The notes under the pieces are model-generated. The model ran no database searches. It saw only the letters and a program-made list of their open reading frames with translations, and was not told the origin of the DNA. A program made the position numbers and the translations under genes. This document shows, in pieces, positions 581 through 36,074 of a stretch of DNA of 36,074 bases. The DNA comes from a virus: the IMG/VR virus record IMGVR_UViG_3300045181_000026, one strand, 5' to 3'. The first letter of the stretch is position 1; the number at the start of each line of letters is the position of its first letter.

Positions 581-808
581 ATGAACACGACCCCCCGCAC
601 CATCGGACCCGTCACCACCGCCGCGGCCGCCGGCACCGGCGTCGCCGGCGCCGCCGCCATCGTCCTCGTCTGGCTCCTGTCCCTCATCGGCGTCGACGTC
701 CCCACCGAGGTCTCGGCAGCGTTCGCCGTGCTCCTGGCCGCTGTCGGCTCGATCGTCGGCGGGTACCTCGTCCGCCCGGTGGAGTCCACGCCGGGCAGGC
801 ACGAGTAG
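581..808 (+). CDS. Holin-like small membrane protein (75 aa, 2 TM)
   Basis: ATG at 581, 2 nt after the endolysin stop. Two hydrophobic segments (VAGAAAIVLVWLLSLIG and VSAAFAVLLAAVGSIVGGYLV) and a charged C-terminus. The longer listed ORF 215..808 is an R/P-rich upstream extension. Confidence 0.7.
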   Translation: MNTTPRTIGPVTTAAAAGTGVAGAAAIVLVWLLSLIGVDVPTEVSAAFAVLLAAVGSIVGGYLVRPVESTPGRHE

Positions 809-879: not shown

Positions 880-917
880 CGCCCCCGCTCAGCTTCGGCT
901 GGGCGGGGGCGATTTGT
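880..917 (+). terminator. Intrinsic terminator closing the lysis cassette
   Basis: 14-bp stem CGCCCCCGCTCAGC / GCTGGGCGGGGGCG (one T-G wobble), TTCG tetraloop, then ATTTGT. Confidence 0.75.
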
Positions 918-1011
918 CGTGCCTGGGGGTCGGTGGCACGCGGTGTCCGACCGACGTCAGTGTCTGTCCTGCGTGGTCTACTGTGGGCCACACAGACCAA
1001 GGGAGGTTGTC

Positions 1012-1197
1012 ATGGCACCCGTAATCGACGTCAGCAGCGCAGACCTTGTCGCACGCCGCGAACAGATCCTCCGGCGGATCGAACTCACCGAGCGCGAGTT
1101 CGAGCGCGCCGTGGCTACGCGCACGCTCTCTGGCGAGGAGTGGGACGCTAAGGAGGAACTCGACGCGATCACGTTCCTTCTGGGCGCTGACGACTGA
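1012..1197 (+). CDS. Small acidic helical protein (61 aa), first gene of the accessory operon; antitoxin-like by size and position only
   Basis: ATG 1012 preceded by GGGAGG (1001-1006). Sequence MAPVIDVSSADLVARREQILRRIELTEREFERAV... Stop 1195-1197 abuts the next ORF. Confidence 0.6.
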   Translation: MAPVIDVSSADLVARREQILRRIELTEREFERAVATRTLSGEEWDAKEELDAITFLLGADD

Positions 1198-1210
1198 ACA
1201 GCGTCATCAC

Positions 1211-1915
1211 TTGGACCTCAGAGAACGAGCCGCGGCTTTCGCGCAAGAACTCCAAGAGACACTCAGCGGGGTGCTGCCCGGCGACTTCCAACTCATATCG
1301 GTCGCCCACAACGGTAGGTACGTAGTCCGGCCGGCCGGTTCCGAAGCGAAGTCGCAGCGGGTCCCGCTCTATATCGGTGAGGTGCTCGCTGCAAAGCTGA
1401 AGGTTCAGGTGTTTCTAGGGCTCGACCACTCCGGAGAGTTCTTGAAGACGATGGGATCTGCCGTTGCCATCGAGTCGGTACTCGATCGAACGCCGCTCAT
1501 CCGCCAAGAGTTCAGGTCCGACATGGCGAAGGACGCCCCGTTCGCTCATTGGCACATCCATGCTGACCGCGGAGCGCTTTCGCACCTGCTTGGTCAAGCT
1601 CACGCGGTGCGCAGCGACGTGGTCCAGAATCCGCACGACATGTCCTCGCTGCACTTTCCAGTTGGTGGAGAACGCTTCCGGCCGTGCGTCGAGGATGTTC
1701 TGGAGTTCGCGGTCAGGGAGCTCGGCGTGGATTGCAAAACGGGCTGGGAAGGCGCGCTGAAAGCCGGTCGAGAGAAGTGGCGGCGACGGCAGTTTCGTAC
1801 CACCGTGCGCGACTTGCAGGAGGAGGCGGCTGATGTCTTGCGCAAGCAGGGCTGGACGTTGACCCCTCCTGATTCCGTGCGCACGGAGGGCACAAGCGTG
1901 CTTCACCGCTGGTGA
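1211..1915 (+). CDS. Hypothetical protein (about 234 aa), lower-GC accessory gene, no domain recognised
   Basis: Open frame of listed ORF 1046..1915. The part upstream of 1197 is S/R-rich and overlaps the better 1012..1197 frame, so the start is placed at TTG 1211 (CTG 1187 is also possible). Hand counts of four 60-nt blocks between 1201 and 1500 give 57-62% G+C. Confidence 0.55.
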   Translation: MDLRERAAAFAQELQETLSGVLPGDFQLISVAHNGRYVVRPAGSEAKSQRVPLYIGEVLAAKLKVQVFLGLDHSGEFLKTMGSAVAIESVLDRTPLIRQEFRSDMAKDAPFAHWHIHADRGALSHLLGQAHAVRSDVVQNPHDMSSLHFPVGGERFRPCVEDVLEFAVRELGVDCKTGWEGALKAGREKWRRRQFRTTVRDLQEEAADVLRKQGWTLTPPDSVRTEGTSVLHRW

Positions 1916-2196
1916 GCAAGAGACCACCCATGACCGACCCCGGCTCCTGGGACGCCGACGCCGACCTCTGGCAGGCGATCACCAACGAGGTCCCGATCCC
2001 GCCCCGCCACGACCAGGTCGACGCACCCGAACCCATCCCCGTCACCGCGCGCATCCACTGGGAACGCGACGGGGAGGAGCAGCTCGACACTCAGGCCGTC
2101 GCGTGGTCCGGCCGCGCCGTCCTCATCAGCATCCACGACCGCCGGCGGCAGATCCTCGGAGTGTGGCTCGACGCCGCCGACATCACGCGGCGCTAG
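1912..2196 (+). CDS. Hypothetical protein (88-94 aa), third gene of the accessory operon
   Basis: GTG 1912 overlaps the upstream stop (GTGA); ATG 1930 is an alternative start. Stop TAG 2194-2196 is followed at once by a strong hairpin. Confidence 0.55.
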   Translation: MSKRPPMTDPGSWDADADLWQAITNEVPIPPRHDQVDAPEPIPVTARIHWERDGEEQLDTQAVAWSGRAVLISIHDRRRQILGVWLDAADITRR

Positions 2197-2198
2197 AA

Positions 2199-2234
2199 GG
2201 GCCCGTCTCGATCGTCGGTGATCGAGACGGGCCC
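2199..2234. terminator. Bidirectional terminator between the convergent accessory operon and the lipoprotein gene
   Basis: Perfect 15-bp stem GGGCCCGTCTCGATC / GATCGAGACGGGCCC, 6-nt loop, then TTGTGTGT on the + strand. Confidence 0.8.
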
Positions 2235-2254: not shown

Positions 2255-2638
2255 TTAGCAGACGTCGTCGTAGAAGTCCTCGAGGATCGAGTCCTCGACC
2301 TCGGGGACCTGCATGTGCCACGAGATCAGTTGGCCCTCACGGTCGCTGCGCCAGGATTCGCAGTCCATCTCGTTCCACTCGTCAGGGCGCCGTTCCCACG
2401 CGGGGTAGAAGTCGCGGTCCTCGAGCTCGGACAGTCCTAGGTGTGGCGAGAGTGGCGTCAGGGGTGCGGCCTCGTCCTCGTCGAGGAAGCCGAACTCTTC
2501 TTCCATCATCTGCTCGTTGATCTCGGCTTGCTCGTTCATCTCGTTGATCGCTTCCTGCTCGGGGGAGGTGCAGCCAGCGAGAGCGAGCAGGGCGACGGGT
2601 ACGGCGAGGGCGATTCGCGTTCGGGGGCGCGTGTGCAT
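2255..2638 (-). CDS. Secreted, highly acidic lipoprotein (127 aa)
   Basis: MHTRPRTRIALAVPVALLALAG|C has a signal peptide plus lipobox (LAGC). GAAAGG lies 8 nt upstream of this ATG. The mature part is rich in E/D. The listed ORF 2255..2695 has a P-rich N-extension. Confidence 0.7.
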   Translation of the reverse strand: MHTRPRTRIALAVPVALLALAGCTSPEQEAINEMNEQAEINEQMMEEEFGFLDEDEAAPLTPLSPHLGLSELEDRDFYPAWERRPDEWNEMDCESWRSDREGQLISWHMQVPEVEDSILEDFYDDVC

Positions 2639-2707: not shown

Positions 2708-3535
2708 TTAGGCGGCCGTCTGGGCGACGACGCGGAGGCGTGCGCGGTCGACGTCGACGTAGCGCTGCGTGATGGTGGGGGTGGAGTGCCCGAGCAGTTG
2801 TTGCACGGCGAGGAGATCGTTGGTGGCGCGCCAGGTCTTGGTGGCGAATCGGTGACGCAGGCTGTGCATGGTCCACTCGCCCGGGAGGGCCTCCGCGACG
2901 AGCTCGCCCACCCATCTGGGGGAGAGGTGGCCGTCGATCTTACCGGGGAAGGCGTAGCCGGCCCCGTCCTGGCAGGCGGCGCGGATCCGGTCGGCGAGTC
3001 CGTTGTCGAGCGGGATGAACCGGCGCCGGCCGCCCTTGCCGTGGACGAGGAGCGTCCAGCCGTCGAGGTCTTGCACGAGGTCGCTGATGTGGACGCAGGC
3101 GACTTCGGCGCGCCGGAGGCCGCGGTGGGCGCCGAGCTCGATCATGAGCCGGACGCGGTGGTCGGCGCGCATGATCGCCTCGCGGAGTGCGGCATCCGGG
3201 GTGGGTCGCGGCCGGTGGTCGGGTTCGCGGACTTTGGGCAGCACGATGGCGGGCGAGGTGGTGCAGCGTCCGGTGCGGGTGGCCCATTCCCAGAAGCCTC
3301 GGAGCGACGCGCGGACGCTTCGGCGGGTGGCGGCCGACCACGTTTGCGCCGCGGTCCAGGCCACGAGGTCGTCGGGGGTGACGTCCCACGGTCCGACGCC
3401 GAGGGCGCGGGAGCATCGTCGGAGGTGGTCTGTGCGGGTGGTGATTGTGCCGGGGGAGCGGCTGGCAGAGCGCATCTCTGCCGACCAATCGTTGAGGGCC
3501 TTGGACCATTCCGGAGTGATCGGTTTCTCTCTCAT
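2708..3535 (-). CDS. int: Tyrosine integrase (275 aa)
   Basis: Catalytic signature visible: ..HRGLRRAE.., HSLRHRFATK, LLGHSTPTITQRYV (R..HxxR..H..Y). C-terminus is ...RVVAQTAA. Confidence 0.92.
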   Translation of the reverse strand: MREKPITPEWSKALNDWSAEMRSASRSPGTITTRTDHLRRCSRALGVGPWDVTPDDLVAWTAAQTWSAATRRSVRASLRGFWEWATRTGRCTTSPAIVLPKVREPDHRPRPTPDAALREAIMRADHRVRLMIELGAHRGLRRAEVACVHISDLVQDLDGWTLLVHGKGGRRRFIPLDNGLADRIRAACQDGAGYAFPGKIDGHLSPRWVGELVAEALPGEWTMHSLRHRFATKTWRATNDLLAVQQLLGHSTPTITQRYVDVDRARLRVVAQTAA

Positions 3536-3556: not shown

Positions 3557-4060
3557 TCAGCGGGCGTGAGGCAGTTCGAGATCCACGTCTGTGGACAGCG
3601 TGGTCGCAGGTGAGAGGGTGTGGACGGTCGCGAGCTCGTCGCGCTCGATAGCCGGCTCGGAGACCACCGGGAGCGGGACGATCTCGGCGAGGTGCTCGTC
3701 GCGCTGGACTCCAGACCAGAAGGTTGGGGGTTCGAGTCCCTTCGGGCGCGCAGATGCCCCGGTCGCGTATGCGACCGGGGCATTCGCCATTTCTGGGCCG
3801 CGACGGGGCGTCCTGCGCACGAGCAGTTCGGCGGGGTCCAGCCCGAACATGTCGGCAATCGCCTCGATCTCCCCGAGCGTGATCGGTCGAGCTCCGCTCA
3901 GCTTCAGCGAGAAGCCGCCGGATGAGAGACCGAGACGGCGGGCGACCTCAAGCTTCGTCAGGCCGGCTCGGCCAATCTCTGCGCGGATGTTTGCCGCCAC
4001 GACATACGCGAGCGGGGGCTCATCGGGCGATGCCTGCGGATGGATTGGCGTAGCTGTCAT
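3557..4060 (-). CDS. XRE-family HTH immunity repressor, viral form (167 aa); the ORF runs through the attP core
   Basis: ATG 4060. HTH: NIRAEIGRAGLTKLEVARRLGLSSGGFSLKLSGARPITLGEIEAIADMFG. Divergent from the cro-like gene. The listed ORF 3557..4198 has an unlikely N-extension. Confidence 0.75.
   Translation of the reverse strand: MTATPIHPQASPDEPPLAYVVAANIRAEIGRAGLTKLEVARRLGLSSGGFSLKLSGARPITLGEIEAIADMFGLDPAELLVRRTPRRGPEMANAPVAYATGASARPKGLEPPTFWSGVQRDEHLAEIVPLPVVSEPAIERDELATVHTLSPATTLSTDVDLELPHAR
3634..3705 (+). repeat. Two copies of a 12-bp direct repeat, GCTCGTCGCGCT (3634-3645 and 3694-3705), just 5' of the attP core; candidate arm-type Int sites
   Basis: Exact 12/12 match, 60 bp apart, read directly. 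Confidence 0.4.
3709..3750 (+). other. attP common core: mimic of a tRNA 3' half (anticodon loop to 3' acceptor strand)
   Basis: CTCCAGA-CCAGA-AGGTT-GGGGG-TTCGAGT-CCCTT-CGGGCGC-G fits anticodon loop, 3' anticodon stem, variable loop, T-arm and acceptor 3' strand. Upstream sequence cannot pair to form the 5' half, so this is not a gene. It lies next to int. Confidence 0.7.
3754..3783 (+). terminator. Perfect hairpin directly after the tRNA-like segment (likely replacement tRNA terminator after integration)
   Basis: 13-bp stem ATGCCCCGGTCGC / GCGACCGGGGCAT, loop GTAT. Confidence 0.6.
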
Positions 4061-4173
4061 ACGTGAGAGTCTACAACGCACCGTAAGAATGCGGAAGGGT
4101 CTGCAAGTCCAGGTTTCGCAACGCGCTGATCTTGCGGCTTGCAAGACCCTGTGACGTGGTGTAGACATGCCGC
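4061..4173. promoter_or_regulatory. Divergent rep/cro control region with nested inverted repeats and -10-like hexamers
   Basis: Outer inverted repeat GTCTACA (4069-4075) / TGTAGAC (4160-4166). Inner repeat GGGTCTGCAAG (4097-4107) / CTTGCAAGACCC (4138-4149), which includes the palindrome CTTGCAAG. TAGACT lies 7 nt before the rep ATG and TAGACA 6 nt before the cro ATG. Confidence 0.55.
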
Positions 4174-4422
4174 ATGCAGATCTTACGCGGTGCAACACTC
4201 TCTAACATTCGAGCGGAGATGGCTCGACGAGGTCTCCGTCAGGCGGATCTCGCCGAGGTGCTCCACATCAGCAGCGGAGCGATCAGCCAGAAGCTCACCG
4301 GAGCGCGGCCGATCAACCTCGCCGAGCTGGAACTGATCGCGGAACGAATCGGCGTGCCGATGAGCGTGCTGGTCGATGACGACCCGGCGCTCGCCGGCGA
4401 TCACGCGAAGGCGGGTGCGTGA
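4174..4422 (+). CDS. Cro-like XRE-family HTH protein (82 aa)
   Basis: LSNIRAEMARRGLRQADLAEVLHISSGAISQKLTGARPINLAELELIAERIG. Clearly paralogous to the repressor HTH. First gene of the rightward early operon. Confidence 0.8.
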   Translation: MQILRGATLSNIRAEMARRGLRQADLAEVLHISSGAISQKLTGARPINLAELELIAERIGVPMSVLVDDDPALAGDHAKAGA

Positions 4423-4425
4423 TGA
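4405..4425 (+). repeat. 21-bp direct repeat, copy 1 (GCGAAGGCGGGTGCGTGATGA)
   Basis: Identical 21-mer at 4887..4907. Covers ..AKAGA-stop plus an overlapping ATG. Confidence 0.9.
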
Positions 4426-4444
4426 ACTGGTGGAAGTACGACGA

Positions 4445-4476
4445 CGCCTCGGCCGCCGAGCTTGGCAGCCGAGGCG
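4445..4476. terminator. Hairpin between the cro-like gene and the convergent reverse gene
   Basis: 9-bp stem CGCCTCGGC / GCCGAGGCG with a 14-nt loop. Confidence 0.45.
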
Positions 4477-4487
4477 CGGGCCCCACG

Positions 4488-4745
4488 TCAGTTGTCGTAG
4501 AAGGTCATCTGGCCGTCGGTGATGAAGTCGGCGAACGCGGCCGCCTCGAGGTCGGAGTCGAGCTCGATGGCGAGATGCTGTCCGGGACCGGCGAGGAACG
4601 CGTGAACCGTCCCGGTCTCGATGTCCTTGACGGTGAAGACCGCAGTGCGCCCCTCGGTTGCTTGAACGCGGGCATCGCTGATCATCTCGAAGGCGTCAGT
4701 GTCGGCGACGCTGATGCGCGCGCTCGCGGTGACGAGTGTGGCCAT
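4488..4745 (-). CDS. Hypothetical acidic protein (85 aa), reverse-oriented moron
   Basis: ATG preceded by CAGGAGAG. Hand-counted GC3 is about 87% (74/85). The competing + ORF 4419..4904 is G/R-rich. Confidence 0.7.
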   Translation of the reverse strand: MATLVTASARISVADTDAFEMISDARVQATEGRTAVFTVKDIETGTVHAFLAGPGQHLAIELDSDLEAAAFADFITDGQMTFYDN

Positions 4746-4907: not shown

Positions 4908-5527
4908 GCGACGACCTGCCTCGCCTCGATGTCTTCCCGCTCACCCGCACGAGGAAGGTTCTCGCGGCCGTGGACGGGCTGATCCACCAGGCCCGCGAGT
5001 TGGCGGATTTGTCGGCGCCCGAAGACGGCGATCGACAGGCCCGAGCGGTCGCGTCGATCGCCGCCGAGATCCTAGGTGACGTAGCGCCGTATCTATTGAA
5101 CGCGGTCAGCGCGGACGATGATCGGGAACGGGGCTCCGACGATCAGACGGACCTCGAGCCTGTTTCCGTCCTCCGCCTTGCGGATGCCGGCCGGGAAGAG
5201 GCCGCTTCCTTGCTGCGTGCAGTAGCTGGCCGCGACGGAGTCGAGACTCTCGCCCTCGACGGTGAAGGTCTCGGTGCCGTAGGTGACGCTGAATCGCATG
5301 GGAACTCCCTTTCGGTCGAGCGGGACGAGCTGGTAACTCGTGCCGCTGGTAGGTCGTCGGACGCGGGCGCGTCTGGCGATATTCCGACCGTAGGGGTAGG
5401 CGCCGACAGTCGAGCGGGTGCTCCCTTCCCCGCTCCTGACGGTGCCGCGGCGTCGGCCGGGTCCACCGGGGCGGTGGGCCTGGCCGAGGCTGAACTCGAC
5501 CGCGCTGGATCGGCGGACGAGCGATGA
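4904..5527 (+). CDS. Questionable ORF: the first ~60 codons look coding; the rest reads antisense through gene 5093..5299 and through apparently non-coding DNA
   Basis: GC3 is about 80% for 4904-5100, but about 63% over 5093-5299 and about 68% over 5300-5523 (hand counts). Ends in ATGA overlapping the 5524 start. Confidence 0.3.
   Translation: MSDDLPRLDVFPLTRTRKVLAAVDGLIHQARELADLSAPEDGDRQARAVASIAAEILGDVAPYLLNAVSADDDRERGSDDQTDLEPVSVLRLADAGREEAASLLRAVAGRDGVETLALDGEGLGAVGDAESHGNSLSVERDELVTRAAGRSSDAGASGDIPTVGVGADSRAGAPFPAPDGAAASAGSTGAVGLAEAELDRAGSADER
5093..5299 (-). CDS. Hypothetical protein (68 aa), second reverse-oriented moron
   Basis: AAAGGGAG RBS upstream of ATG 5299. GC3 is about 85% (58/68), against about 63% for the overlapping + frame. 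The sequence looks globular. Confidence 0.65.
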   Translation of the reverse strand: MRFSVTYGTETFTVEGESLDSVAASYCTQQGSGLFPAGIRKAEDGNRLEVRLIVGAPFPIIVRADRVQ

Positions 5528-8864: not shown

Positions 8865-9127
8865 CTCTCGCCAACCTGTCCCCGCAGCCCTGGATGGACG
8901 AAGCGCTCTGCGCGCAGTCCTGGCCGGACGCGTGGTTCCCCGGCAAGGGTGAGACCGCCGGCCGCGCCAGGGCCATCTGTGACACCTGCCCCGTCAAGGC
9001 CGCCTGCCGCGACTACGCCGACAGCTTCGAGCCGAACAGACCCGACGACATGTTCGGCATGTACGGCGGAGAGTCCCCCGCCGAGCGGTACGCCCGACGC
9101 CGAGCAGCACGGGAGGCCGCAGCATGA
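8861..9127 (+). CDS. whiB: WhiB-family transcription factor (88 aa)
   Basis: C-x22-CxxC-x5-C pattern with context ALCAQ..PDAWFP..GRARAICDTCPVKAACRDYA. Confidence 0.85.
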   Translation: MTLANLSPQPWMDEALCAQSWPDAWFPGKGETAGRARAICDTCPVKAACRDYADSFEPNRPDDMFGMYGGESPAERYARRRAAREAAA

Positions 9128-21433: not shown

Positions 21434-21447
21434 CCCCACCCAGTCGC

Positions 21448-21492
21448 GGCGCCCGCCCGGGGCGAGCCCATCGTGGCCCCCGGGCGGGCGCC
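21448..21492 (+). terminator. Strong hairpin after the capsid gene
   Basis: 15-bp stem GGCGCCCGCCCGGGG / CCCCGGGCGGGCGCC with a 15-nt loop. No clear U-tract. Confidence 0.6.
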
Positions 21493-21522
21493 GTCACCGA
21501 CACTCAACGATCGGAGATTCGC

Positions 21523-24734: not shown

Positions 24735-25237
24735 TCCACACCGTTGACCGGTACGGCGAGGCCATCGAGGTCGACCTGCACCGGTTCTATGGGCTCGACC
24801 TCATCGCCTTCTTCCAAGGCGCGCACTCGTGGCGGAAGCTCTCCGCCCTGATCCGCGCGATGCCCCGGGCGTCCCAGCTCGGGCAGGCCCAGGCCGACGA
24901 CGACGATCTCGCGATCGCACTCGCGGCAAGGCAGGCAGACGACCAGGCCGACATCCTGCGCCCCACGGGGCCGAGGGTGTCGGCCTGGTCGGAAGAGGTC
25001 GAGCTCCTGACGGACCTCGCGGACATCGCGAAGCGAACCCTCGACGTCCTGACGGCCCAGGCGACGGGACAGAAACAGATCCCCGCGCACGTACCTGCCC
25101 CACGGCCCCGTACCGCGAGCCACCGACTCGAAGAGACCAGGCGTCGCCGCGCACGCGCGGCGCTCGCGGAATCGATCTCGGACGCTCAACGCCGATGGGC
25201 GAAGAAGCACGCGCAGGCCCCCACCAGCACCGACTGA
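24339..25237 (+). CDS. Tail assembly chaperone G-T fusion via a -1 programmed frameshift
   Basis: The -1 frame from 24659 encodes ..IEVDLHRFYGLDLIAFFQGAHSWRKLSALIRAMP.., the conserved gpT-type motif. Candidate slip sites are G-runs at 24691-24701 and 24708-24717. Confidence 0.65.
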
Positions 25238-28369: not shown

Positions 28370-29275
28370 ATGGCGCTCGATCCGACGGCTGGCGCCGTCT
28401 ACGAGCTCGAGGGTGTGACGTTCGGCGGCAGGCGCGAGGGCGGCTACATGGTCGCCTCCGTGTCCCGGGCAGCAGCCTCGGTGCGTTCGCAAGCGGTGCC
28501 GGCCCCGCACCGGCACGGCACGATCCCGGGCCGGGACTACCTTGGCTCCTCGACGTGGACGTTCGACATCACGACGGACGCGGAGGACAACGCCGGCGCC
28601 TACGCGCTCGCCCGTCAACTGGGCGGCGCGTGGGCGCGGGCCCGGTCCTTGGCGCCGGGCGAGCTCGCAGTCCTGCGCGTCTACCGGGCCGGCGAGTGGT
28701 TCCGGGTGTACGGGCGTGCCCGTGAGTTCGCGGGTCCGGAAGAGACCGTGGGGACGACGGTCGGCACCGGCGCGATCGTCTGCTCGTTCGAGGTCATGGA
28801 TCCGCTCGTGTACGGCGACCTCGAGCGGTCGGTGTCGATCGGCACGACCCCCTCGGCGGGCGCGACGGGCCTGATCTTCCCGGTCGTATTCGACGTCGTC
28901 TGGGACACCGACGGGGTGCCGGGCCAGCGGTCCGGGATCGTCGACCTCGAGGGCACCGTGCCCGCCCCCGTGGTCGTCGAGCTGCGGGGCCCGATGTCGA
29001 ACCCGCGGGTCGTGCACTCGTCGGGGTGGGAGGTCGGCGTGACCGGCCCGCTCGCATACGACGAGGCCGTGATCTTCGACGGCCGGACCCGTACCGTGCG
29101 GGCGACCATCGGCGGCGCGCCCGCACCGAATCCGGCGTCGCGGATCACGCGCGCTACCCGCCTGGACCGACTCACCGTCGACCCGGGGCGCTCGGAGTTC
29201 ACCTTGTTCGCCACCGATCCCACGGGGTCGGGGCAGGCCGTCATCACGTGGCGCGACGCGCACGCATCGATCTAG
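28370..29275 (+). CDS. Distal tail protein (Dit-like) / minor tail protein
   Basis: First gene after the tape measure protein, 301 aa. Confidence 0.6.
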   Translation: MALDPTAGAVYELEGVTFGGRREGGYMVASVSRAAASVRSQAVPAPHRHGTIPGRDYLGSSTWTFDITTDAEDNAGAYALARQLGGAWARARSLAPGELAVLRVYRAGEWFRVYGRAREFAGPEETVGTTVGTGAIVCSFEVMDPLVYGDLERSVSIGTTPSAGATGLIFPVVFDVVWDTDGVPGQRSGIVDLEGTVPAPVVVELRGPMSNPRVVHSSGWEVGVTGPLAYDEAVIFDGRTRTVRATIGGAPAPNPASRITRATRLDRLTVDPGRSEFTLFATDPTGSGQAVITWRDAHASI

Positions 29276-34611: not shown

Positions 34612-35078
34612 CTCTTCGGCATCTCTCGCGCGCGCATCGTCTCCTGCGTCGCACTCTGCTGACGGCCGCGTACCTGACGGTGCTGGTGGCGGGCATCAGC
34701 ATGCTGGTCCTCACGCCCCGCACGATCGCCGGGGCACTGGGCGAGGCCGTCATCTACCTGGCCGCGGTGCTCGCCGTGATCGGCGGTCCCGCCGGCGCCT
34801 GGTCCGTGGCCACGGACCGGCCCGGCCGGGACCGGTGGCGCGTCGAACGCTGGGCTGCGCCGTTGGCGGCTGGCGGCGCGCTGGGATACGCGGTCGGTGT
34901 CTGGTCACTGATCGCGGCCGAGACGATCACCCGCATGTCGCAGGGCGCGTGGATCGCCACGTGCCTGCTGCTGCTCATCGACCGGGCCGTCGAGGTCGAC
35001 GCCACGGCCAAGACTCAACGCGTCCTTCACGACCTCAAGCGAGGAGATCCTCGACCGCCGACCACCGACCGGGGGTGA
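34608..35078 (+). CDS. Four-TM membrane protein (156 aa), lysis-cassette associated
   Basis: GTGA overlap. Four hydrophobic segments. Confidence 0.55.
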   Translation: MTLRHLSRAHRLLRRTLLTAAYLTVLVAGISMLVLTPRTIAGALGEAVIYLAAVLAVIGGPAGAWSVATDRPGRDRWRVERWAAPLAAGGALGYAVGVWSLIAAETITRMSQGAWIATCLLLLIDRAVEVDATAKTQRVLHDLKRGDPRPPTTDRG

Positions 35079-35460: not shown

Positions 35461-36074
35461 ATGGCCCAATTCCCCGGCGCCATCCAGAAGCCCATCAGCA
35501 CGAACTTCGGCCTCGTCCGCAGCGGCGGCAAGATCGACCGGACCGCGGCCCGCCCTGGCGGAACGACGGCCGTGATCTATCACGTCGCAGCATCCAAGGC
35601 CGCGAGCCTGCGCGACTACTTCAACCTGCCCGCCGTCCGCGCGTCCTCTCACCTGTTCGTCCTCTACAGCGGGTTGGTCGAGCAGTACGTCGACACCGAC
35701 CACGTCTCCTGGGCGTGCGGGGACGGCGACCTGCGCGCCATCACCGTCGAGACCCAGGGCGTGGACGGCGAGCCGTGGACGGACGCCCAGGTCGAGACCC
35801 TCGCCCAGATCGCCGCGTGGGCGCACCGCACCTACGACGTCCCCCTCCGCCTCATGACCTCCTCCGCGACGAGTCAGCACGGGCTGGGCTGGCACCGCCT
35901 CGGCGTGCAGGGCAACTTCTCCGGCCGGCCCGGCCTCCTTGGCCTGCACCGCTCCAACCTCAAGACCGAGCGGTGGTCATCGGCCTTCGGCAAGACCTGC
36001 CCGGGTGACGACCGGATCTTGCAGATGCCGACCATCCTCGCCCGCGCCAAGCAGATCACCGGCAGCTCGGATCC
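35461..36074 (+). CDS. Endolysin, 5' part: N-acetylmuramoyl-L-alanine amidase (Amidase_2/PGRP-like); the ORF runs off the window end and continues at 1..578
   Basis: GGAGG RBS. My own translation: MAQFPGAIQKPISTNFG...AVIYHVAAS...SSHLFV...VDTDHVSWACGDG...ITVETQG...HGLGWHRLG...FGKTCPGDDRI. No stop before the window end. Confidence 0.85.
   Translation, partial: MAQFPGAIQKPISTNFGLVRSGGKIDRTAARPGGTTAVIYHVAASKAASLRDYFNLPAVRASSHLFVLYSGLVEQYVDTDHVSWACGDGDLRAITVETQGVDGEPWTDAQVETLAQIAAWAHRTYDVPLRLMTSSATSQHGLGWHRLGVQGNFSGRPGLLGLHRSNLKTERWSSAFGKTCPGDDRILQMPTILARAKQITGSSD
35948..36074. repeat. Terminal overlap copy 2 (identical to 1..127)
   Basis: See feature 1..127. Confidence 0.95.

Follow-up and report, generated by a model that had tools for sequence, protein, structure and literature searches.

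What is the small group of genes that lies between the lysis genes and the integrase gene of the temperate actinophage recorded as IMGVR_UViG_3300045181_000026 in IMG/VR, and when might it be expressed? The whole stretch of 36,074 nucleotides (hereafter, the window) was analyzed, with emphasis on positions 1012-2234, for which an initial annotation made from the letters alone had proposed a terminator-bracketed operon of three open reading frames (ORF1, ORF2 and ORF3), possibly a defense or toxin-antitoxin-like system. We find that ORF1 and ORF2 are a self-contained, horizontally mobile two-gene cassette carrying its own promoter, and that ORF3 is a separately acquired passenger, evolutionarily independent of the pair, that shares its transcript in this phage. 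The positions of all features are collected in Table 1.

Conservation and mobility of the ORF1-ORF2 pair

With a hidden Markov model of the ORF1 family, an ORF1-family gene was identified immediately upstream of the ORF2 homolog in 66 of 66 loci with upstream sequence, which derive from 60 actinobacterial species, three plasmids and one Mycobacterium abscessus prophage. In 36 of 57 loci the ORF1 stop codon overlaps the ORF2 start, by 1, 4, 8 or 11 nt and the like; the genes of the remaining loci are at most 20 nt apart, and in this phage the gap is 13 nt. The arrangement of a small upstream gene translationally coupled to a larger downstream gene, described in the initial annotation, thus recurs in all 57 loci. 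Both reading frames, predicted there as a 61-aa acidic protein and a protein of about 234 aa, are identical to the gene calls of the Joint Genome Institute (JGI; P0121 and P0001). The GGGAGG ribosome-binding site assigned to the unit is also present, and a GGAGG equivalent to it is found in nearly all cassette loci.

Co-occurrence elsewhere, the check proposed for the three genes, separates ORF3 from the other two. ORF3 was found beside the pair at none of the other loci and its homologs occur without ORF1-ORF2, and the three-gene unit was rejected on this ground; the proposed operon holds as a transcription unit in this phage only. As ORF3 adjoins the pair in this phage only, what is conserved as a functional unit is ORF1+ORF2, and these two genes almost certainly act as one.

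The pair is widely distributed. A pattern scan using one genome per species gave 60 loci in Microbacteriaceae, Cellulomonadaceae, Geodermatophilaceae, Arthrobacter, Nakamurella, Acidothermus, Acidimicrobiia and others. The pair has one copy per genome and is highly conserved, with a mean column identity of 53-57%. Plasmids of Streptomyces albus, Rhodococcus and Curtobacterium also carry it. In the M. abscessus prophage prophiGD102-2 (MabE1) the pair corresponds to gp78/gp77 (ORF1 and gp78 are homologous, E = 3e-10) and is likewise located between holin and integrase. In prophiGD04-1, a sibling MabE1 prophage, this slot is taken by unrelated genes.

No conserved neighborhood was found around the pair. 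Its neighbors are unrelated between loci: the largest neighbor cluster, an ABC ATPase, occurs at 7 loci and at varying distance, and 102 immediate neighbors match 109 Pfam families, each in three loci at most. At 50 of 52 loci the ORF2 homolog has a lower third-codon-position G+C content (GC3) than the genes that flank it, with a median difference of -0.14; the flanking values are somewhat inflated by a crude gene caller that kept only reading frames with GC3 >= 0.72. In this phage, ORF1 (0.77) and ORF2 (0.72) have the lowest GC3 of the region, ORF2 the lowest of all, against a mean of 0.87 +/- 0.065 in 26 called genes, and the G+C content is 60-62% in 300-nt windows across 1151-1750 compared to 70% overall. 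The lower G+C content ascribed to the whole unit therefore applies to ORF1 and ORF2 and does not extend to ORF3 (Table 1).

The horizontal acquisition suggested in the initial annotation is thus supported for ORF1-ORF2 by its occurrence in 60 species, among unrelated neighbors, on plasmids and in the MabE1 prophage slot. The pair shows the features of a cargo gene, namely its own terminators, a conserved promoter, atypical GC3 and presence/absence polymorphism among related (MabE1) prophages, and it is very probably mobile cargo.

A conserved promoter motif upstream of ORF1

A TAnnnT-type hexamer (TACTGT) upstream of ORF1 had been pointed out from the sequence. The hexamer is real, but rather than standing alone it is part of a larger, bipartite motif. 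Alignment of the 120 nt upstream of the ORF1 homologs revealed this motif in 49 of 59 loci, at a distance of 44-73 nt from the start codon. It consists of TGTC(A/G)G(A/T)GG, about five variable bases, (T)G(G) and a T(Y)TACT hexamer, which follows the TGTCRG box at exactly 10 nt. In the 49 box-bearing loci TGTC is invariant (or, for T, kept in 47 of 49), the W-G-G is kept, and a T occupies hexamer position 6 in 43 of 49. Strict pattern matches number 31 in the approximately 7 kb of sequence upstream of ORF1, compared to 43 in the remaining 2.28 Mb (both strands), and 19 of the 22 occurrences of TGTCnG-N10-TYKAST in about 1.2 Mb stand upstream of ORF1 homologs. No sigma-70 promoter with -35 and -10 elements was found in the region.

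RecA-independent DNA-damage promoters of mycobacteria (RecA-NDp) have the sequence tTGTCRgtg-8nt-TAnnnT (PMC5656591). The consensus from PafBC chromatin immunoprecipitation sequencing is tGTCgg(N10)tA(N3)T (PMC8635444). PafBC, an activator, recognizes the GTC triplet at -26 and thereby takes the place of the -35 contact. Similar to these P1-type promoters, the cassette promoters combine a TGTCRgtg box about 10 nt from the -10 hexamer with the lack of a -35 element, and the motif is limited to Actinomycetota. Three groups, Mycobacterium, Rhodococcus and the Cellulomonas group, have canonical copies in front of the cassette: TTGTCGG-N10-TACTGT in the M. abscessus prophage, TGTCGGTG-N8-CATAGT on the Rhodococcus plasmid, and copies with N10-CAAGAT in Cellulomonas/Isoptericola. 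From this resemblance in sequence, it is likely that a PafBC-type, damage-inducible promoter travels with the cassette. The conservation of a PafBC/RecA-NDp-like promoter argues for damage-inducible rather than constitutive expression in the lysogen.

Canonical sites of the form TGTCGG-N10-TAnnnT with a leaderless start served as positive controls. They precede radA in Herbiconiux, DUF222-HNH genes in three Microbacterium loci and a gene with a TIR domain (TIR_2), and were located at L056:7179, L059:7297, L057:1217(-), L010:12795 and L009:20083(-), each with a start codon 6-7 nt after the hexamer. Several of these sites are within a few kb of an ORF1-ORF2 cassette and of type I restriction-modification genes, and the DUF222-HNH genes are themselves mobile. 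The DUF222-HNH genes are of the '13E12' family, which in M. tuberculosis is driven by this promoter type.

Two further sites were noted. On the S. albus plasmid (NZ_CP103061.1) the pair, at 3789-4705, is preceded by TTGTCAGTG-N8-TTGACT, and a type I-E CRISPR-Cas system (cas3, casA) follows 1 kb downstream. In the window, the sole other strict TGTCGG-N10-TAnnnT match is TGTCGGCGCCTACCCCTACGGT at 5387-5408 (minus strand). It lies 88 nt upstream of the gene at 5093-5299 (minus strand, 68 aa), and about one match in the window would be expected by chance.

The ORF1 and ORF2 proteins and their possible function

The 176 close relatives of ORF2 are all annotated as hypothetical, lack a Pfam domain and belong to Actinomycetota. 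An exhaustive profile search extended the family to 1019 representative clusters (at 50% identity), all of them stand-alone proteins of about 230-260 aa, with 'hypothetical protein' as the only annotation of the distant members. A Pfam search with 42 divergent relatives gave no match, and profile sequence searches of the ORF2 alignments against the PDB returned only noise.

The structural comparison proposed in the initial annotation was carried out for ORF1 and ORF2, and neither model has a fold match. ORF2 is modeled with a mean predicted local distance difference test score (pLDDT) of 89 and a predicted template modeling score (pTM) of 0.86, as an N-terminal helix, a seven-stranded antiparallel sheet, a further helix and a helical C-terminal half. 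Foldseek found no match at E <= 0.001, the best being E = 0.28 in the PDB and 0.039 in BFVD. Weak matches to p32/gC1qR-like folds recurred and were dismissed (TM < 0.3). The ORF1 model (pLDDT 84) has an extended, conserved N-terminus (MAPVIDV) followed by helices at residues 9-22, 27-35 and 41-57, the last of which is acidic, conserved and ends in FLLG; no PDB match was better than E = 3. A ribbon-helix-helix (RHH) or other DNA-binding antitoxin was rejected for ORF1 in view of this three-helix architecture with its extended N-terminus, the lack of a PDB match and the lack of an inverted-repeat excess in the promoters.

Several residues of ORF2 are invariant or nearly so: H113, W114, H117, R120, G121, H142, H148, E161, D162, R187, W190, R191, Q194, R200 and D201, together with a conserved loop GGERFRPC (G152 to C159). 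We infer that these residues make up an active site or a binding site in which metal ligands and phosphate-binding arginines abound. On account of the conserved His, Glu, Asp, Cys and Arg residues ORF2 is read as a probable metal-dependent enzyme acting on a phosphate-rich substrate; that it is an enzyme at all we put at slightly below even. A HEPN-like Rx4H motif (R120...H125) was not retained, since H125 is not fully conserved and the fold around it differs from a helical bundle. PD-(D/E)XK, HD and cupin readings were rejected as well, since the required residues are not conserved and the fold gives no support. As it lacks annotation and structural relatives and nevertheless offers a confident model and a constant partner, the ORF2 family, with about 1000 clusters, is a tractable 'dark' protein family.

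Which function would account for the linkage, mobility, promoter and residues? The reading that we favor, with a probability of roughly 0.4, is that DNA damage or single-stranded DNA induces the cassette, as mobile cargo that encodes a probable enzyme and a small acidic partner, and that these two would behave like an effector and its neutralizer, similar to a toxin-antitoxin pair. With a TGTC(R)G(W)GG box separated by 10 nt from the -10 hexamer that follows it, and lacking a -35 box, the promoter would have the geometry used by PafBC, an actinobacterial WYL-domain activator that senses single-stranded DNA. As long as the cell or lysogen is undisturbed the operon would remain mostly off, and single-stranded DNA arising from damage, prophage induction or replication of an infecting phage would switch it on. 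As the genes are translationally coupled, ORF1 and ORF2 would be produced together, in stoichiometric amounts and probably as a complex. ORF2 would then be the effector, possibly acting on nucleic acid or nucleotides, and ORF1 the helical partner that restrains or targets it. Such a pair could serve the mobile element or its host under genotoxic or phage stress, with growth arrest or abortive infection as the putative outcome, and the phage would carry it as cargo in the variable slot between lysis and integrase genes, with ORF3 added separately.

Several observations weigh against this reading. At the promoter, the hexamer at N10 lacks the A at -11 in this phage (TCTACT) and in most Microbacteriaceae loci (TYTACT), where a TAnnnT is reached only 2 nt further, at N12; most Microbacteriaceae, Arthrobacter and Streptomyces copies have the same 2-nt ambiguity, and because of it PafBC control of this copy is probable and not certain. 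The box here is TGTCTG instead of TGTCRG. In contrast to the canonical damage genes in the same genomes, which combine N10 and TAnnnT with a leaderless start, the cassette transcript is predicted to have a leader and a Shine-Dalgarno sequence. As for the proteins, in none of which a domain had been recognized in the initial annotation, ORF1, ORF2 and ORF3 have no family match in Pfam, PHROGs or NCBIfam. ORF2 and ORF3 have none in PADLOC-DB v2 either, where ORF1 gives only a marginal match to a Cyclase model (E = 0.025, 11.5 bits). Most flanking genes are ordinary metabolic or transport genes, and no defense-island enrichment was found: few of the 102 neighbors are defense genes (type I restriction-modification in 2-3 loci, one PDC-S14, one DinG-like). 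The longest perfect inverted repeats in 59 promoter regions average 4.58 nt, compared to 4.43 in shuffled sequences; with no excess, an autoregulatory operator of the kind typical of type II toxin-antitoxin systems is not indicated. Finally, a neutralizer that is induced together with its effector does not by itself explain how the effector is released.

DNA-repair functions dominate PafBC regulons: most mycobacterial DNA-repair genes are governed by PafBC, which occurs in almost every actinobacterial species (PMC8635444). This leads to the strongest alternative, an accessory of the DNA-damage response, in which ORF2 would be a repair or damage-tolerance enzyme (a nuclease or a lesion-processing enzyme), ORF1 its regulatory or targeting subunit and the cassette, with the PafBC-like promoter that moves along with it, a mobile member of the regulon, much like SOS-regulated mutagenesis or repair cassettes that take their operator along, and neither a toxin nor a defense system. 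The pair is highly conserved, single-copy and confined to Actinomycetota, which speaks for this alternative, but its distribution is patchy and its GC3 atypical. Similarly, the conserved His, Glu, Asp and Arg residues would fit nucleic-acid chemistry, but no similarity to a known repair protein or fold was found, and the mostly ordinary chromosomal neighbors have to be set against copies on plasmids and in prophage cargo slots. A small acidic partner encoded by an overlapping gene is also more like a selfish or accessory module than like core repair. Taken together, we consider repair somewhat less probable than the favored reading but a serious rival of comparable weight, and an effector-neutralizer or defense-type role in its place is a hypothesis that we put below even.

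The favored reading also has a narrower form that is considerably less probable than repair. Here ORF1 would be an inhibitor of ORF2, and ORF2 an enzyme with a new fold that is freed or activated by DNA damage or phage replication, so that the cassette would be abortive-infection or competitor-killing cargo wired to PafBC. If this were true, PafBC would be a trigger of anti-phage immunity in Actinobacteria, the toxin fold would be new, and the cassettes would represent a phylum-wide class.

The identity that the initial annotation had offered, a toxin-antitoxin, abortive-infection or exclusion system, gained no support from PADLOC or from fold matches to known families. In the corresponding alternative the lysogen would express the cassette constitutively as a prophage defense, exclusion or classical type II toxin-antitoxin system against heterotypic phages. 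Type II toxin-antitoxin modules occupy att-proximal cargo slots of actinophage prophages (Dedrick et al., 2017; PMC8092301), and att-linked slots are described as defense loci in mycobacteriophages and M. abscessus prophages. The cassette of this phage is found in just such a slot, bracketed by terminators and with its own promoter and ribosome-binding site, and two unrelated prophages, this phage and MabE1, share the location. It also resembles these modules in its small acidic upstream gene that abuts or overlaps a larger downstream gene, and in its autonomy, mobility, patchiness and atypical composition. The differences concern the proteins and their control: there is no toxin or antitoxin homology, ORF1 has no recognizable DNA-binding fold (RHH, HTH, AbrB or Phd), ORF2, with 234 aa and a two-part fold, is larger than most type II toxins, and operator palindromes are lacking from a promoter that seems activator-dependent and damage-inducible. 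Moreover, most of the 60 loci lie outside prophages or defense islands, and the pattern scan of IMG/VR with the ORF2 profile gave no relative. The paper on the M. abscessus prophages contains no expression data for MabE1 gp77/78. We regard constitutive defense by the lysogen as improbable.

Some copies of the cassette adjoin type I restriction-modification genes, type I-E CRISPR-Cas or a TIR gene, which would agree with a defense role and recalls WYL-regulated defense systems (BrxR/BREX and CapW/CBASS; PMC9122601, PMC11662680). These share with the cassette the concept of an accessory mobile module controlled by a WYL protein that senses single-stranded DNA or DNA damage. In contrast to those systems, in which a dedicated WYL repressor gene is adjacent, the cassette has no linked regulator, its promoter is like that of the global activator PafBC, and its role in defense is putative.

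An antirepressor-like module that would tie host DNA damage to prophage induction, similar to LexA-controlled antirepressors, is very improbable: the damage-type promoter of a temperate phage, a repressor in which only a helix-turn-helix (HTH) domain and no obvious self-cleavage domain was detected, and the position of the cassette apart from the immunity region would be compatible with it, but the pair occurs in dozens of chromosomal and plasmid contexts other than prophages with no phage repressor nearby and is missing from the known Microbacterium phages in GenBank.

Short operons that move together with a regulatory site are well known from the SOS response, as in imuA-imuB-dnaE2, umuDC and the LexA-controlled dinJ-yafQ. 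Like the cassette, they have spread horizontally with a damage-responsive control element; they differ in that a LexA operator takes the place of the activator-type -26 box, and their proteins are unrelated to ORF1 and ORF2. A small mobile operon that responds to a damage signal and is carried as prophage or plasmid cargo is thus of a familiar kind, whereas neither these proteins nor a mobile cassette that uses a PafBC-type promoter are described in the libraries and literature searched. If the promoter link is confirmed, the PafBC regulon would reach mobile cargo on prophages and plasmids, including prophages of the pathogen M. abscessus, whose cargo is believed to influence phage susceptibility and physiology.

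The cargo slot and its setting in the phage genome

The window is a single genome unit of a temperate actinophage of about 35.9 kb, circular or concatemeric, with an assembly overlap at its ends (bases 1-127 are repeated identically at 35948-36074). Its sequence is identical to JGI metagenome contigs, and close relatives of its genes are from Microbacterium. Close relatives of the phage itself were not found: megablast gave no relatives of the 800-2300 region, and the relatives of the integrase in IMG/VR have only the integrase in common with it.

That the unit is cargo rather than part of the lysis or structural machinery, as initially proposed, agrees with its slot between holin and integrase. 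Homology to ordinary lysis or structural functions, which would have contradicted the proposal, was looked for in PHROGs and none was found, and across the 60 loci the pair is unlinked to lysis genes. Integrated copies of the same phage on other metagenome contigs (L002 and L004) stop just beyond the integrase, and the 880-2236 segment is on this basis att-proximal cargo. For phage annotation this means that such 'moron' slots can contain genes induced by damage besides those expressed constitutively in the lysogen, and that apparent operons in them can be mosaics of independently acquired genes.

Table 1. Features of the cassette and of its surroundings in the window.
Feature	Position	Strand	Remarks
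Endolysin, C-terminus	to 578		PG_binding_1 domain
Holin	581-808		
Intrinsic-terminator-like hairpin	880-911	+	After holin gene; 14-bp GC-rich stem, 4-nt loop, then ATTTGT
TGTCTG, upstream half of promoter motif	961-966	+	Resembles PafBC -26 element; GTC kept, T instead of A/G at position 5
-10 region TCTACT	977-982	+	Exactly 10 nt after TGTC box; preceded by TGG (extended -10-like)
TACTGT, TAnnnT reading	979-984	+	12-nt spacing from TGTC box
Shine-Dalgarno GGGAGG	1001-1006	+	5 nt 5' of ORF1 ATG (1012)
ORF1	1012-1197	+	61 aa, pI 4.4; same as JGI call
ORF2	1211-1915	+	234 aa, TTG start; same as JGI call
ORF3	1930-2196	+	88 aa, pI 4.7, GC3 0.94; function-unassigned passenger
Bidirectional terminator-like hairpin	2197-2236	both	17-bp stem, 6-nt loop; between convergent ORF3 (+) and lipoprotein gene (-)
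Lipoprotein gene	2255-2638	-	
Tyrosine integrase	2708-3535	-	
HTH repressor	3557-4060	-	
Cro-like HTH gene	4219-4422		

The strong hairpins that had been described as bracketing the unit are real. The one downstream of the holin gene (-43.1 kcal/mol, z = -6.4) shields the ORF1-ORF2 cassette from the lysis transcript. The bidirectional hairpin that follows ORF3 has -40.5 kcal/mol on the plus strand and -35.6 kcal/mol on the minus strand (z = -6.8 and -8.6). When 50-nt segments were folded along both strands of the whole window, the background energy averaged -16.8 +/- 4.8 kcal/mol and the two hairpins ranked 6th and 8th. Five hairpins are stronger (-41 to -47 kcal/mol per 50 nt), at 21446-21495, 24941-24990, 5446-5495, 28591-28640 and 34785-34834, and probably represent terminators or regulatory structures in other parts of the phage genome.

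The start of ORF3 differs from that proposed in the initial annotation, a GTG at 1912 coupled to ORF2 through GTGA: its homologs (MTDPG(S/P)WDADAD...) and the JGI call begin at the equivalent of the ATG at 1930, 14 nt after the ORF2 stop codon. The relatives of ORF3 are few, and stand either solitary on a plasmid-like element with ParA/ParB, adjoining an MmeI-type restriction-modification gene, or beside TetR genes. The closest (80% identity) are on three JGI and Logan contigs of about 26-33 kb (L068-L070; homolog at L068:5001-5267), whose plasmid-like element carries ParA/ParB, ArdC, Fic/VbhA and the MmeI-type gene, the latter divergent from the ORF3 relative.

The gene between the bidirectional terminator and the integrase is a further att-proximal cargo gene. 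Its acidic product (127 aa, pI 4.05), for which no family match was obtained, carries a signal peptide of the lipoprotein type (...ALLALAGC); a role as a surface or exclusion lipoprotein is conceivable.

The integrated copies cease to match the phage exactly near 3752, which suggests that attP lies within the repressor gene; this is the arrangement in the integration-dependent immunity systems of mycobacteriophages and M. abscessus prophages. A sequence resembling a tRNA 3' end (GGTTGGGGGTTCGAGTCCCTTCGGGCGCGCA, approximately 3722-3752) lies inside the repressor reading frame and is followed by a perfect 13-bp hairpin (3754-3783); ARAGORN found no complete tRNA in the window or in L002 and L004. 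Among the early genes, the phage also encodes a WhiB-family protein at 8894-9127 (Pfam PF02467 in the JGI call).

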